From Gaiellaceae bacterium (GTDB taxonomy: Bacteria; Actinomycetota; Thermoleophilia; Gaiellales; Gaiellaceae), in NCBI GenBank assembly GCA_036555085.1, contig DATBMD010000225.1, forward strand, positions 1-60,231: DNA of 60,231 bases. The letters run 5' to 3'. Below are positions 19,422 through 53,882 of the stretch, piece after piece; within the stretch, counting starts at the first letter, position 1; every line of letters begins with the position of its first letter. The translations under genes were made by a program, and so were the position numbers. Under the pieces are notes generated by a model that saw only the letters and a list, made by a program, of their open reading frames with translations, ran no database searches and had not been told where the DNA came from.

Positions 19422-19547
19422 GCGCTCGGCTCCCGCCGGGCGGAGCCCGGCTCCGCCGAGCGCTCGCGCCGCTGAGCGCACGCGGCTCTCCGGGGTTGTG
19501 CTCCAGCACTATCCCCTCCGGCCGCGCACGCTCAGCGACGCGCCGGA
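19422..19547. repeat. Compound palindromic (REP-like) element between convergent genes
   Basis: Stem ggcggagc / gctccgcc, plus a long imperfect hairpin gctgagcg..gcggc..gggg..gtgct / agcac..cccc..gccgc..cgctcagc. Confidence 0.55.
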
Positions 19548-21305: not shown

Positions 21306-22511
21306 GTGTCCGCCGCGCTCTTCCCGCCCGAGTACCTCGCTCAGCGTGCGCGCTACCGGGCATTCATGGACGAGCACGTCTACCCGGCGGAGGCGGCCAT
21401 CCACCGCGAGGACGACGCGGCGCTCGCGCTGGTCACGGAGCTCCAGGGCCGTGCCCGGGAGGCGGGGCTGTGGGCGCCGCACATGCCGCCGGAGGCGGGC
21501 GGCACCGGCGAGGGCTTCCTCTACTACGCGTGCATGAACGAGGAGATCGGGCGCTCGTCGTACGCCCAGCTCGTCTTCGGCTGCCAGGCGCCCGACGCCG
21601 GCAACGCGGAGATCCTGCACCTGTTCGGTACGCCCGACCAGCAGGAGCGCTGGCTGCGCCCGCTCGTGGCGGGTGAGGCGCGCTCGTTCTTCTCGATGAC
21701 CGAGCCCGACGTTGCCGGCTCCGACCCGACGACGCTACGGACCTCAGCCCGCCGGGACGGCGGCGAATGGGTGATCGACGGGCACAAGTGGTTCTCGTCC
21801 GGCGCGGAGGGAGCGTCGTTCGCGATCGTGATGGCCGTCACCGACCCGGAGGCGAAGCCGCACCGGCGCGCCTCGCAGATCATCGTCCCGGCGGACGCGC
21901 CCGGCGTCGAGCTCGTGCGCCCGATCCCGGTGCTGGGGCACACGGGCCGCGGCTGGTCGACGCATTGCGAGGTGCGCTACTCGGGCGTCCGCGTCCCAGT
22001 CGAGAACACGCTCGGCGAGCCTGGCGACGGGTTCCGGATCGCCCAGAAGCGGCTCGGGCCGGGCCGGATCCACCACGTGATGCGCTGGCTCGGCCAGATG
22101 CAGCGCGCGTTCGAGCTGATGTGCTCCTATGCGCTCGAGCGGGAGGCGTTCGGCGGTCCGCTCGCAGAGAAGCAGACCGTGCAGAGCTGGATCGCGGACT
22201 CGGCGGCCGAGATCCAGGCCTGTCGCCTGCTGACGATGGAGGCCGCCCGCCGGATCGACGGGGGAGACGAGGCGCGCGTCGAGGTCTCGCTGCTCAAGTT
22301 CTACGCCGCCCGGGTGCTCGGCGACGTGATCGACCGCGCGGTGCAGGTGCACGGCGCCCGCGGCCTCACCGACGAGACGCCGCTGGCCGGGATGCTGTTG
22401 CAGGCGCGGGGCGCGCGCATCTACGACGGCCCCGACGAGGTGCATCGGATGGTCGTCGCGCGCCGCATCCTGAAGGCGTTCGCGGACGGCGACGGCTGGC
22501 GCTTCAGCTGA
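21306..22511 (+). CDS. Acyl-CoA dehydrogenase (ACAD10/11-like, FadE2 type)
   Basis: CQAPDAGNAE, FSMTEP, GHKWFSSGA, RLGPGRIHH and IYDGPDEVH motifs. Confidence 0.9.
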   Translation: MSAALFPPEYLAQRARYRAFMDEHVYPAEAAIHREDDAALALVTELQGRAREAGLWAPHMPPEAGGTGEGFLYYACMNEEIGRSSYAQLVFGCQAPDAGNAEILHLFGTPDQQERWLRPLVAGEARSFFSMTEPDVAGSDPTTLRTSARRDGGEWVIDGHKWFSSGAEGASFAIVMAVTDPEAKPHRRASQIIVPADAPGVELVRPIPVLGHTGRGWSTHCEVRYSGVRVPVENTLGEPGDGFRIAQKRLGPGRIHHVMRWLGQMQRAFELMCSYALEREAFGGPLAEKQTVQSWIADSAAEIQACRLLTMEAARRIDGGDEARVEVSLLKFYAARVLGDVIDRAVQVHGARGLTDETPLAGMLLQARGARIYDGPDEVHRMVVARRILKAFADGDGWRFS

Positions 22512-22570
22512 GCGCCTCCGCGGCAGCGAGCGTCGACCCCCCGGCCCACCGGTGTCCCGCGGGCTCGACC

Positions 22571-22708
22571 TGTGCACAGGATGGCTGTGGACAAATCGTT
22601 ACGAAGTTGGCGCAATCCACACCGTCCGCGCGGGCCATGTCCGGGGTCAGACCCCGGACATGGCCCCTCGGGACGCGTCCGCGGCAGCCAGGGAACCGCT
22701 GTGGAAAA
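22571..22708. promoter_or_regulatory. Cluster of four DnaA-box-like 9-mers
   Basis: TGTGCACAG at 22571, TGTGGACAA at 22586 (actinobacterial consensus), CAATCCACA at 22613 and TGTGGAAAA at 22700. Confidence 0.4.
22632..22666. repeat. Perfect 17-bp inverted repeat (REP-like element or bidirectional terminator)
   Basis: gggccatgtccggggtc-a-gaccccggacatggccc, between convergent genes. Confidence 0.75.
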
Positions 22709-22716
22709 AGGGCGTT

Positions 22717-23409
22717 TCAGCTCGACAGCGGCGGCGCCGGCACCGGCTCCCCGGACGGGCTACGCGGCCCCGGGACGTTCGGGAACCGGAAGTCCACCGG
22801 CGGCCGGCCGGGCTGGACGGCCCAGACGTGCCCGCTCAGGCCCGACTGGAGCGCGAGCCAGACCGCGTCGGCGACCTCGGCTGCCTCGAGCAGCGGGAAG
22901 CCGGCCTCCGCGAGCGTCGTCCTCGTCGCACCGGTCACCATCGGCGTGTCGGCGAAGCCCGGGGCGACCGCGTTGATGGAGATCCCGCGCGCCGCGAGCG
23001 GCCCCGCCGCGCTCCGGACGAAGCCGACGACGGCGTGCTTCGTGGCCGCGTAGACGGGATCGCCGGGGACGGCGGTCAGGCCCGCGAGCGACGCCGTCGC
23101 AACGATCCGGCCGCCGTGCGGCTGCACGCGCGCGAGCCGGCGCACGCCGAGCACCACCCCGTCGACGTTGACGCCGATCGCCCGCCGGTAGCCGTCGAGC
23201 GTCAGCTCCGCCGGGTCGGCCGGCCCGCCGAGCACGCCGGCGTTCAGGCACGCGATCTCGACCGGGCCGACCTGCTCCCAGTGCTCGCTGTCGGAGACGT
23301 CGAACCCGGTGGTCAGGTCGAGCACCTCGACCTCGAGCTCCTCGGCGCGCAGGCGCGAGGCGATCGCCGCCCCGATCCCGGACGAGCCGCCGGTGACGAT
23401 CGCCCTCAC
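22717..23409 (-). CDS. Short-chain dehydrogenase/reductase
   Basis: GTGA overlap start. TGGSSGIG, LNAG and YAATK motifs. Confidence 0.9.
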   Translation of the reverse strand: MRAIVTGGSSGIGAAIASRLRAEELEVEVLDLTTGFDVSDSEHWEQVGPVEIACLNAGVLGGPADPAELTLDGYRRAIGVNVDGVVLGVRRLARVQPHGGRIVATASLAGLTAVPGDPVYAATKHAVVGFVRSAAGPLAARGISINAVAPGFADTPMVTGATRTTLAEAGFPLLEAAEVADAVWLALQSGLSGHVWAVQPGRPPVDFRFPNVPGPRSPSGEPVPAPPLSS

Positions 23410-30894: not shown

Positions 30895-31917
30895 ATGTCA
30901 GGTACCGAGAGCGAGATGCCGCCCGGCACTGCGCACGACGCGCGCCGCGAGCGGCTCGAGGAGGCGCTCGTCGAGATCAAGCGAGTGATCGCGGGCCAGG
31001 ACGCGATGCTCGAGCGCGTACTCGTCTGCCTGGTCGCGGGCGGGCACCTCCTGATCGAGGGCGTTCCCGGCCTGGCCAAGACGCTGACGATCAAGACGAC
31101 CGCGGCCGTGCTCGGCGGCACCTTCAAGCGCGTCCAGTTCACACCCGACCTCGTGCCGTCGGACCTGGTCGGGACGAGGATCTACAAGCCGCGCACGACG
31201 ACCTTCGCGGTGGAGCTCGGGCCGGTGTTCTGCAACTTCCTGCTCGCGGACGAGATCAACCGCGCGCCCGCGAAGGTGCAGTCGGCCCTGCTCGAGGTGA
31301 TGCAGGAGCGCCAGGTGACGATCGGGCACGAGACGCACCCGGTCCCGGACCCGTTCCTCGTGATGGCGACGCAGAACCCGATCGAGTCGGAGGGCACCTA
31401 CCCGCTGCCCGAGGCGCAGGTCGACCGGTTCATGCTGAAGGTGCTCGTGGGGTATCCGGAGCGCGACGAGGAGCTGACGGTCGTCCAGCGCTCGCTCGAG
31501 CTGCCGGCCGAGGTGCGCCAGGTGCTGTCGCTCGTGGACCTGAAGGAGCTGCAGCGCTCCGCGCTCGAGGTCTACGTCGACCCGTCGCTCGTCTCCTACG
31601 CCGTCACCCTCGCGACGGCGACGCGCGTCCCCGCCCGGCACGGGCTGGATGCGTGGTCGGAGTACGTCGCCTACGGCGCGAGCCCGCGCGGCCCGATCGC
31701 GCTCGTCCAGAGCGCACGCGCGCTCGCCCTGATCCACGGCCGCGACTACGTGATCACGCAGGACCTGCTCGCGCTCGTCAAGGACGCCTTCCGCCACCGT
31801 CTGGTCCTGACCTATCAGGCGCTCGCGGAGGAGAAGTCGGCCGACGACATCCTCGACGCAGTCATCCACGCGGTCCCGCAGCCGGCGCTCGACCTGCGGC
31901 GGATCGCCGCGGCATGA
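30895..31917 (+). CDS. moxR: MoxR-family AAA+ ATPase
   Basis: EGVPGLAKT, RVQFTPDLVPSD, LADEINRAPAK, ATQNPIE and GASPR motifs. Confidence 0.93.
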   Translation: MSGTESEMPPGTAHDARRERLEEALVEIKRVIAGQDAMLERVLVCLVAGGHLLIEGVPGLAKTLTIKTTAAVLGGTFKRVQFTPDLVPSDLVGTRIYKPRTTTFAVELGPVFCNFLLADEINRAPAKVQSALLEVMQERQVTIGHETHPVPDPFLVMATQNPIESEGTYPLPEAQVDRFMLKVLVGYPERDEELTVVQRSLELPAEVRQVLSLVDLKELQRSALEVYVDPSLVSYAVTLATATRVPARHGLDAWSEYVAYGASPRGPIALVQSARALALIHGRDYVITQDLLALVKDAFRHRLVLTYQALAEEKSADDILDAVIHAVPQPALDLRRIAAA

Positions 31918-31937
31918 TCCTCCCGCCACGCGCATGA
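31914..31937 (+). CDS. 7-aa minigene MILPPRA, coupled by ATGA overlaps at both ends
   Basis: ATG 31914 overlaps the moxR TGA, and its own TGA (31935-31937) overlaps ATG 31934. Confidence 0.4.
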   Translation: MILPPRA

Positions 31938-32059
31938 GGCCTGTGTCGACCTCCCGATCGGCGCCCCTGCTCGGCGCCGGCCGCGCCAGCGGCCGCTTCA
32001 GGGATTGTCGCGATCCCGGATCTGCTCCTGCAGATTCGGGATCTGCGGGGAAGAGATGA
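31934..32059 (+). mobile_element. Peptide-encoding structured intergenic repeat, copy 1 (41-aa ORF MRPVSTSRSAPLLGAGRASGRFRDCRDPGSAPADSGSAGKR)
   Basis: About 85% identical by hand alignment to 53032-53160 (minus strand). Bounded by ATGAG at both ends, with an internal gatcccggatctgc / gcagattcgggatc hairpin. Mobility is inferred. Confidence 0.65.
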
Positions 32060-32985
32060 GCCGGTCGCTCCGGGTCCTCGGCGTCGAGCACACGCCGGAC
32101 CGGCCCGGTCCCGGCGCGATGCCCGACCAGCTCCTCCGGGCGCTGGAGCTCACGATCGGGCGCCGGGTCCAGGGCCTGCTGGCGGGCGACCACCGCTCGG
32201 CGCTGCTCGGCCGCGGCAGCGAGCTCGCCCAGGTGCGGGCGTACGAGCCGGGCGTCGACGACGTGCGCCAGATCGACTGGAACGTGACCGCGCGGACGAA
32301 CGAGCCGCACGTCCGCGTCCAGCTCGCCGAGCGCGTCCTCGTCACGTGGCTCGCGCTCGACACCTCCCCGTCGATGACGTTCGGCACCGCAGACCGGCGC
32401 AAGGCCGACGTCGCGCTGGGCGTCGGGCTCGCACTGGGCCACGCCGCGAGCGCGCGCGGGAACCGCGTCGGGCTCGTCGGGTTCGGCGGCTCGGACGCCA
32501 CCGTGCCTCCCCGGCAGGGCCGCGCCGGCCTCGTCGGGCTGATGATGGCGCTGCGCGACGCGGAGAACGGCCGCAACGGGGGCTCGTCGAGCCTCGGCGG
32601 GGCCCTCCGCCGGCTCGCCGCGGTGAGCCAGCAGCGCGCTCTGGTCGCCATCGTCTCCGACTTCCGCGGCCCCCGTGACTGGCGCTCGCCGCTGCTCGAC
32701 CTCGCCGGCCGGCACGACGTGCTCGCGGTGGAGATCCGCGACCCGCGCGAGCAGGAGCTGCCCGACGTGGGCGAGCTGACCCTCGTCGACCCGGAGACCG
32801 GCCGTCAGCTCCGCGTCGACACCCGCAGCGCCGCGCTCCGGCGCCGCTTCGCCGAAGCCGCCGCGGAGGAGCGCAAGTCGCTCGCGCAGGCGTTCTCCTC
32901 GGCCGGGGTCGCGCACGTCGTCCTGTCGACGTCCGGCGACTGGCTGCGGACGCTCGCCGGCTTCCTTCGGCAGAGGTCGAGATGA
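32056..32985 (+). CDS. DUF58 protein (MoxR-associated, VWA-like)
   Basis: VRAYEPGVDDVRQIDWNVTAR, DTSPSM and IVSDF motifs; ATG at 32056. Confidence 0.9.
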   Translation: MSRSLRVLGVEHTPDRPGPGAMPDQLLRALELTIGRRVQGLLAGDHRSALLGRGSELAQVRAYEPGVDDVRQIDWNVTARTNEPHVRVQLAERVLVTWLALDTSPSMTFGTADRRKADVALGVGLALGHAASARGNRVGLVGFGGSDATVPPRQGRAGLVGLMMALRDAENGRNGGSSSLGGALRRLAAVSQQRALVAIVSDFRGPRDWRSPLLDLAGRHDVLAVEIRDPREQELPDVGELTLVDPETGRQLRVDTRSAALRRRFAEAAAEERKSLAQAFSSAGVAHVVLSTSGDWLRTLAGFLRQRSR

Positions 32986-52402: not shown

Positions 52403-53035
52403 TCAATCCACAGGCGCCGCGAGGTCGGATCTGCCGAGTTGTGTCACGGCCGCTTCGAACGCGCCCTCGGGCTGCGCGCCGAGCACCAACAGCCGGCCGG
52501 CGAGGAGGAACGCCGGCACGCCTGTGGCGCCGATCGCAACGGCCTGCCGGGTCGACCCTTCGACCACGTCGGCGTAGCGATCCGTCGCGAGCACGCTCTC
52601 GACCTCGGCCGGGGGCAGGCCGACGGTCGCTGCGATCCGGCGCAGCACCTCGCGATCCCCGATCTCGAGGCTGTCCTGCCAGTAGGCGCGCATCACCGCG
52701 TCGTGGAAAGGCGAATGCAGACCGTGCTCGCGTGCGAGCTCGGCGAGCCGCAGCGCCGTCAGCGATCTCGGCACGAGATCGGGATGCGGACGGTACTCGA
52801 GCCCGCGCGCGGCGAAGAACGCGCTGACGTGCTCGGTCATCCCGGGGCCGTAGCGAGCCAGCAGCTGCTCGCGCGGGAGCCCGCCCGACGGATACTCGGG
52901 ATGGAGGTCGAACGGAAGCCACGTGACCTCGGCGCCGTACCGGCGCCGGAGCCAGTCGACCGTGGGCTCGGCCGCCCGGCAGAACGGTCAGATGAAGTCC
53001 GACCAGACGACGATCCGGAGCGGCTCGGTGCTCAT
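52403..53035 (-). CDS. DsbA/FrnE-family thiol-disulfide oxidoreductase, probable selenoprotein (Sec16, UxxC)
   Basis: ATG 53035 gives MSTEPLRIVVWSDFI-TGA-PFC, and the frame continues into track ORF 52403..52840 ending GVPAF...GAQP. The TGA (52990-52988) occupies the catalytic Cys position. Confidence 0.82.
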
Positions 53036-53160
53036 GCTTTCTCCGCAGATCCCGAATCTGCAGCGGCAGATTCGGGATCGCGACAATCCCTGAAGAGGCC
53101 GCCGGCGCGGCCGGCGCCGATCAGGGGCGTTGCTCGGGAGGTAGACGCTGGACGTCTCAT
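53032..53160 (-). mobile_element. Peptide-encoding structured intergenic repeat, copy 2 (42-aa ORF MRRPASTSRATPLIGAGRAGGLFRDCRDPESAAADSGSAEKA)
   Basis: Homologous to 31934-32059 and flanked by GCATGAG direct repeats. Its ATG overlaps the hisA stop and its TGA overlaps the dsbA start. Mobility is inferred. Confidence 0.65.
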
Positions 53161-53882
53161 GCCGTCACCGTAGCCTCCAGCGCCTCTGCGAGCGTGAACG
53201 TCCCACGCAGGAGCGCGCTGCCTGCAACGGCGCCCTCGCACCCGAGCTCGCGCAGCGCGAGCAGGTCGCACACGCTTGCGACCCCGCCTGCTGCGAGCAC
53301 AGGCAATCCCGCCGGGAGCACGCTCCGCAGGAGGTCGAGATCGGGGCCGGCGAGCGAGCCGTCCCGGCGGGTGCTCGTGACCAGGATTCGCGCTACGCCT
53401 GCTTCGGCGCAGCGGTGGGCGAGCTCTGCCGGGCCGAGCTCGGACCTGCGGGCCCAGCCGTCGACGGCGACGCGGCCGTCGCGCGCGTCGATCGCCACGA
53501 CGAGGCGATCGCCGAGCCGTGCCGTCGCTCGGGCGAGGAACTCCGGCGAGAGAGCCGCCGTGCCGACCATCACGCGCGCCGCGCCGGCGGCGAGGGCCGC
53601 GTCGAGCGCGTCGGGTGTCCGGTAGCCGCCCCCGACCTGGACCGGGACCGGCACGGCCGCCGCGATCCTCTCCACCAGCGCGATCGTCGGCGAGCCGCTG
53701 AACGCGCCGTCGAGATCGACGAGATGCAGGCGTGTCGCTCCTTCGGCGGCGTAGCGGCGGGCAAGCTCGACGGGGTCGCCGCCCTCGACGGTCACGTGCT
53801 CCCGGCGGCCCTGGTCGAGCCGGACGGCGCGGCCCTCCAGGACGTCGACAGCTGGAACGACTTCGAACTCGCGTGCTAGCAC
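53157..53882 (-). CDS. hisA: ProFAR isomerase
   Basis: VPAVDVLEGRAVRL, LHLVDLDGA, QVGGG and RDGSLAGPD motifs. Confidence 0.9.
   Translation of the reverse strand: MLAREFEVVPAVDVLEGRAVRLDQGRREHVTVEGGDPVELARRYAAEGATRLHLVDLDGAFSGSPTIALVERIAAAVPVPVQVGGGYRTPDALDAALAAGAARVMVGTAALSPEFLARATARLGDRLVVAIDARDGRVAVDGWARRSELGPAELAHRCAEAGVARILVTSTRRDGSLAGPDLDLLRSVLPAGLPVLAAGGVASVCDLLALRELGCEGAVAGSALLRGTFTLAEALEATVTA

Follow-up and report, generated by a model that had tools for sequence, protein, structure and literature searches.

A dispersed double-hairpin repeat of Gaiellaceae at start/stop overlaps that probably relays ribosomes between operon genes

Background

Why do two junctions between unrelated genes of one bacterial genome hold almost the same ~125-bp sequence, each time as an open frame that ties the stop codon upstream to the start codon downstream? 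The question arose in a stretch of 60,231 nucleotides from a Gaiellaceae bacterium, called the window in the following; its 3.7-Mb genome of 72 % GC is designated G000. The original prediction had proposed a non-autonomous element that inserts into operons together with its own translational bridge or, alternatively, a portable regulatory leader.

Results and discussion

Two copies in the window

The two loci contained the following features:

30895..31917 (+): moxR-type AAA ATPase (Pfam AAA_3), upstream host gene of copy 1, stop codon at 31915-31917
31914..31937 (+): mini-ORF of 7 codons with -4 coupling on both sides, to moxR and to the element (24 nt, chained to the 126 nt of the latter)
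31934..32059 (+): element copy 1, RTGA to RTGA, 126 nt, open 41-codon bridge
31934..31951 (+): leader of copy 1, family form RTGAGACGTCCTGTGTCAACC, here with a 3-nt deletion; also present in a second repeat family
31978..31995 (+): hairpin 1 of copy 1, 7-bp stem, nearly invariant, with a GNNA loop
31996..32008 (+): conserved linker of copy 1, CTTCAGGGRT
32009..32047 (+): hairpin 2 of copy 1, covarying stem of ~17 bp
32048..32055 (+): purine-rich tail of copy 1, conserved among copies, at the ribosome-binding position of the next gene and with this putative function
32056..32985 (+): DUF58 gene (Pfam DUF58), downstream host gene of copy 1
52403..53035 (-): DsbA/FrnE-like gene, host gene on the downstream side of copy 2; codon 16 is an in-frame TGA within a UPFC motif
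53032..53160 (-): element copy 2, 129 nt, open 42-codon bridge
53157..53882 (-): hisA-type gene (Pfam His_biosynth), upstream host gene of copy 2

The alignment of the two copies presented 109 identical positions in 129 columns and a single 3-nt indel, in agreement with the predicted ~125-bp repeat of about 85 % identity at two sites. Both copies had the predicted peptide motif (LxGAGRAxGxFRDCRDPxSAxADSGSA) in 41 or 42 open codons, a terminal TGA overlapping the following ATG, and the 3' hairpin with its variable loop and an A-U to G-U change in the stem. The overlap of the initial ATG with an upstream TGA was described correctly for copy 2, where the hisA stop provides it; in copy 1 the TGA is that of the 7-codon mini-ORF and not that of moxR. 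The relay of copy 1 has two steps, because the mini-ORF between moxR and the element overlaps each of them. Overlooked at first were the smaller second hairpin (7 bp, GNNA loop) and some 40 further core copies in the genome. Folding z values of the two window copies were -2.1 and -4.3. Neither peptide matched a Pfam family, and Rfam found nothing in the window at gathering score; four loci searched at E 0.1 gave tRNA only.

Contigs from two other DNA runs continued from moxR into copy 1 with zero differences, and the passage from copy 1 into DUF58 was matched by one of them, thus copy 1 is not an assembly artefact. RNA-library contigs of both RNA runs examined also spanned moxR into copy 1 with no mismatches, where contigs do not prove a transcript. 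An empty allele of copy 1 was not among the joints listed for four runs (15 of 20 joints; contigs drop rare variants). The DsbA/FrnE-like gene next to copy 2 is likely a selenoprotein: a tRNA-Sec is present in the genome, and the DsbA-like gene of locus L493 has the same in-frame TGA.

A repeat family of Gaiellaceae

A profile search with the core, composed of a 7-bp hairpin with GNNA loop, the conserved linker and a hairpin of ~17 bp, detected 44 core copies in G000. The usual unit measures 122-125 bp and the bridges 84-216 nt. Tandem arrays comprised one to four units, with unit lengths of the form 3n+2 (122 and 125 bp). An exact 26-base pattern was present at 112 GTDB loci, titled as Gaiella, Gaiellaceae, Gaiellales, Thermoleophilia and unclassified Actinomycetes or Actinomycetota; with 53 of the 64 database parts scanned, none of these matches had a Mycobacterium title. 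The covariance model matched 10 of 26 genomes of the family, belonging to three genera, with 1-45 copies in each of these ten relatives (45 in G323), and none of 74 genomes from other families of the order or of 150 genomes from the wider phylum. Pattern matches were absent from IMG/VR and from phages, and plasmids gave a single marginal match of 36 nt. The element is a repeat family of the Gaiellaceae.

Bridging and non-bridging copies

About 24 co-oriented gene junctions of G000 contained the element, and 16 of these 24 loci were unbroken -4/-4 relays from RTGA to RTGA, compared to 49 of 1108 other G000 gaps of 8-330 nt; gene calls came from our own codon-usage script and are approximate. 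Counted among the 16 relays were copy 1, a fused tandem pair and a copy that no longer has the long hairpin; several of the remaining eight loci had a -1 or few-base spacing. About 20 of the 44 core copies, most of them of a longer hairpin variant, lay outside operon junctions and formed no bridge: after stops, in convergent or divergent gaps or beside tRNAs. Metagenome matches to this variant (n = 144) were convergent (37), co-oriented (31), antisense (17), divergent (6) or incomplete (53). Bridging is therefore a property of one subfamily. Copies in random contexts, which the original prediction had named as grounds for its refutation, were thus encountered in part, with the ~20 extragenic copies beside the 16 intact co-oriented loci.

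The 112 named GTDB loci were classed as 58 sense, 7 antisense and 47 unclassifiable by the gene caller. Of the sense loci, 36 were open bridges and 47 had a length divisible by 3; despite lengths of 93-216 nt, 34 of the 36 open bridges used the same frame, whereby the named loci are not independent, many being rplK-rplA. Three of the seven antisense loci were open bridges as well. One junction upstream of an E1-alpha-like dehydrogenase gene had reverse-orientation copies (L046, L047, L056, L064, L068), some as open RTGA bridges. Degenerate copies in the G000 C238:735 region and at C131:13133-13213 were apparently fused in frame to the host gene, one at its start and one at its end.

Empty sites and insertion

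Empty sites in orthologous operons, the kind of evidence named in the original prediction, were found at narH-narJ, narJ-narI, moxR-DUF58 and hisA-dsbA. The narH-narJ junction was a plain overlap in 19 of 19 relatives, narJ-narI in 14 of 19, with different inserts in the other five, and moxR-DUF58 in 21 of 29, with three short other inserts and five unreadable cases. The hisA-dsbA junction was empty in L493 and held related copies in L480; only these two of 24 loci share the gene order. A filled site reads RTGA-element-RTGA, and the first base of both RTGA words agreed in 13 of 17 G000 loci (Fisher p 0.03); in the named loci this agreement was weak (p 0.09). At rplK-rplA and a few other sites, including nuo, 15-31 bp with the ribosome-binding site were duplicated, and a simple 4-bp target duplication does not explain these duplications at rplK-rplA. 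The nearest neighbour of a copy was in its own genome for 33.7 of 74 copies, against a shuffled mean of 3.2; this clustering originated almost wholly from two of eleven genomes, each with its own subfamily burst. The plain overlaps at orthologous junctions, together with the clustering of copies by genome, mark the copies as insertions. Judged by these sequence comparisons, the element has been mobile in the recent past.

The rplK-rplA junction (L423-L452 and others) appeared as a hot spot of insertion, with plain overlaps at about 16 of the 28 loci of the family and with this element, a second family or several unrelated inserts at the others; the sampling favoured long matches.

Conservation of frame and hairpin

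Ten ungapped G000 copies had a pN/pS of 0.86-0.95, with substitutions distributed evenly over the three codon positions. The ten copies were without internal stops against 2.1 expected, which at P 0.09 is not significant alone, and copies had been picked as open. Core-less deletion relics, which retained the leader, some also the tail, and had lost the hairpins, were in frame in six of six cases, and 58 of 85 core-free G000 gaps with RTGA at both ends were divisible by 3. Across 99 non-redundant copies 95 % of cells were paired, and both sides had changed in 14 of the 17 pairs of hairpin 2, a count inflated by related sequences. Thus, with lengths and relics in frame, a covarying hairpin 2 and a pN/pS without sign of constraint, frame and hairpin are kept and the peptide is not. 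A role for the peptide, or the portable regulatory leader that the original prediction gave as its alternative, is not supported, given the pN/pS and the neighbouring genes of the copies, which are functionally unrelated. The non-autonomous insertion with its own translational bridge gained support from the empty orthologous sites, the excess of relays over other gaps and the frame-keeping indels.

Other repeats in the same niche

As a second family, a repeat of ~180 bp whose core is unrelated to that of the element was present in 52 of 100 Gaiellaceae genomes, a tally that includes the positives G373, G381 and G399 (unpublished genomes, used only here). Open bridges were formed by 10 of the 24 loci examined. 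Several copies, often bridging ones, began with nearly the same 21-nt leader as the element; the query contained the leader and favoured such matches. A third family, of 30 bp and with a GAA-loop hairpin, bridged seven G000 junctions and three narJ-narI junctions in relatives; its unit runs from RTGA to RTGA over nine codons with CGTC at the hairpin foot, and one copy ends in a -1 overlap. The loci were:

window 19427..19544 (-): second-family copy, non-bridging
G000 C100:600-779, C202:6142-6300; L420, L445, L504-L507: second-family bridging and non-bridging loci
G000 C76, C89, C108, C170, C190, C191, C276; L408, L414, L418: third-family loci

New are the second unrelated repeat with the same leader at the same type of junction, the third bridging family, the in-frame core-less relics, and bridging and non-bridging subfamilies side by side. 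Possibly, although we regard this as doubtful, a mobile system not yet described has its working end in the 21-nt leader; its enzyme would target start/stop overlaps, take up unrelated hairpin repeats (at least two cores, of 77 and ~150 bp) as cargo and leave permanent relay mini-ORFs as scars.

Search for a mobiliser

A transposase with matching ends, which the original prediction had proposed to look for, was not found among the families searched. None of nine Y1_Tnp loci from six genomes was flanked by the element, and G323, with its 45 copies, had no Y1_Tnp match at all. For DUF559, MTES_1575, IS110, RT, AbiEi_4, GIY-YIG, HNH and TnpB no locus was core-flanked in G000 and up to five high-copy genomes; one partial core match (E 0.024) lay 1.1 kb from a GIY-YIG gene. 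Clustering of 354 neighbouring proteins revealed no recurrent mobile gene, Pfam named no transposase on 150 neighbouring proteins (of 267 cluster representatives), and no transposase gene was seen next to the leader pattern. In G323 two inverted copies have ordinary genes at their sides. A SINE-like retro-element was also considered and dropped, no RT being found in five genomes.

Other arrangements were observed on the way. Two outward-facing copies with near-identical inner flanks (L247/L266, G303:C3:138408-139093) have only a DUF4396 gene between them, an arrangement that resembles a small composite transposon. Three RAYT-like Y1 genes of G000 were accompanied by their own repeats (C34:6150-6476, GTAG-type; C150:26493; C177:24831-25277). 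The repeat by the C177 gene is of the GGGTCTGACCC type, that of C150 of a related type, and the window holds a C177-type copy at 22511-22717. Several long HNH-domain genes in G000 (C126, C263, C308, C335), presumably resembling DUF222 proteins, included two with a shared upstream repeat unrelated to the element.

Comparison with known systems

Mycobacterial interspersed repetitive units (MIRUs) reportedly go back to Supply et al. 1997. In the source texts available in part, MIRUs are described as mobile, with insertion at start codons and a -4 coupled ORF (PMC12548453), as occurring in 40-50 copies with direct repeats of four nucleotides and with empty sites (PMC3184786), and as having units of 77 and 53 bp (PMC4213456). 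As far as these descriptions go, the element shares the dispersal in about 40-50 copies (here the 44 of G000), the start-codon insertion with a small ORF -4 coupled to both neighbours (16/24 in G000, 36/58 sense named loci), the 4-nt direct repeats and empty orthologous sites, GC-rich internal inverted repeats, and variable tandem arrays of 3n+2 units (77 and 53 bp in MIRUs, 122 and 125 bp here). In contrast to the MIRU unit of 40-100 bp, that of the Gaiellaceae measures 122-125 bp, and the imperfect terminal inverted repeats of MIRUs have no counterpart visible by eye between leader and tail. The element belongs to another class of Actinomycetota, and differs further in having two defined hairpins, a sister subfamily that forms no bridges, bridges in reverse orientation and a leader that recurs in another repeat. 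On the MIRU trait of co-transcription in the polycistronic mRNA, the RNA-library contigs from moxR into copy 1 are the observation to set beside it, and contigs do not prove a transcript. Since size and terminal-repeat features differ and the likeness drawn here is one of lifestyle, the element was not filed as a MIRU; by the MIRU descriptions it appears to live like MIRUs and to follow the same strategy. The original prediction recognised no described family. The literature searched (little subscription content, no supplements) held no account of such a Gaiella repeat; the lifestyle is already described for MIRUs in the text available of PMC12548453.

With the REP/REPIN-RAYT systems (GTAG and CGTC families) the element has in common extragenic GC-rich hairpins by stops and tRNA genes, tandem clusters and lineage specificity, and CGTC REPs likewise occur without a linked transposase, according to the portion of PMC3733652 considered. 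It differs in that no GTAG or CGTC tag stands at the foot of either hairpin and in that the repeats on either side of the Y1 genes in these genomes are different ones; the word CGTC is present in the leader of the element and at the hairpin foot of the 30-bp family. Bridging is not mentioned for REPs in that portion of the text. In -4 translational coupling and bicistronic design, too, a short ORF hands ribosomes to a downstream start and can unfold nearby structure (PMC12548453, in the part available), but here the short ORF is borne by a repeat and replaces the native overlap.

Proposed mechanism and alternatives

We consider it likely that this dispersed double-hairpin repeat, located at RTGA overlaps that are empty in relatives, relays ribosomes through a throw-away ORF, which they would enter at the upstream stop and leave at a downstream start that has been rebuilt, and that its insertion is tolerated in operons. 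One subfamily of an older, extragenic REP-like repeat may have gained leader and purine-rich tail. A single RTGA-to-RTGA unit would be copied into RTGA sites by an enzyme acting in trans, with ~4-6 bp of the target repeated. Ribosomes crossing the unit would melt hairpin 2 next to the initiation region of the following gene and begin anew at the -4 overlap, and copies losing the frame would be purged. The best candidate for the mover, a guess that we hold only tentatively, is an HUH-type enzyme that would work in trans on single-stranded DNA and recognise hairpins. It is proposed because the element has hairpins, targets a short word and shows no inverted ends; the general properties of HUH-type enzymes stand behind this proposal. 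Coupling through unfolding or reinitiation is established, as stated in the part of PMC12548453 considered.

A targeting enzyme could be dispensable if slippage or recombination duplicates the gene junctions, gene conversion or untargeted insertion spreads the hairpin cores, and only the in-frame cases survive selection. The long junction duplications at rplK-rplA and nuo, the 49 other open bridges in G000, the several unrelated inserts at rplK-rplA and the lack of an enzyme in the searched families fit such a course, and targets are plentiful with -4 overlaps at 638 of 2479 co-oriented junctions, about a quarter. We nevertheless hold it to be unlikely: leader, core and tail return together at unrelated sites whose flanks share no more than ~4-6 bp, and two adjacent nar junctions are filled in G000 while the element is absent from both in all 19 relatives. 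Less credible still is a classical MITE that stems from IS110, or from an IS bearing terminal inverted repeats, and is moved by the transposase of its source. Its short direct repeats would be in place, five IS110-family loci exist in G000, and the leader contains TGTCAAC, which we take to be an IS-end-like word. Aligned copies, on the other side, lack terminal inverted repeats matching an autonomous IS as well as an inverted leader copy at the other end, the leader was not seen beside a transposase gene, the IS110 ends examined were dissimilar, and four other high-copy genomes had no IS110 match; such an origin is very improbable.

The host might have placed the repeat as a domesticated regulatory cassette to tune operon stoichiometry, with the function of a leader peptide, an attenuator or a signal for RNA processing or stability. 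The covarying hairpin 2 adjoins the downstream initiation region, rplK-rplA is occupied in many genomes, and at senX3-regX3 independent expression has been reported to come from the MIRUs (PMC4213456, in the section available). Against it, a constrained peptide and related downstream genes as features of leader or attenuator peptides were absent (10 copies; neighbours examined), presence is patchy with most sites of relatives empty, reverse-orientation bridges occur, core-less relics persist and no Rfam match was obtained, so that we give this cassette little credence, below that of enzyme-free spreading and slightly above that of a MITE. The relay by an inserted repeat is the reading carried forward.

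Conclusions

The Gaiellaceae element appears to be an independent MIRU-like case in harmless soil bacteria with many filled and empty sites, in which bridging and non-bridging subfamilies coexist and two further families use the same junction niche. MIRUs are in daily use for strain typing, and of their movement the reviews, in the parts considered, say only that they appear mobile. For annotators, such ORFs of 10-60 codons are a warning, being repeat relics rather than small proteins. An enzyme with non-polar insertion at start codons would be valuable as a tool. If the leader is indeed the working end of a mobile system, small ORFs would have a general route into operon junctions, and the mechanism of MIRU mobility could be studied in a tractable model.
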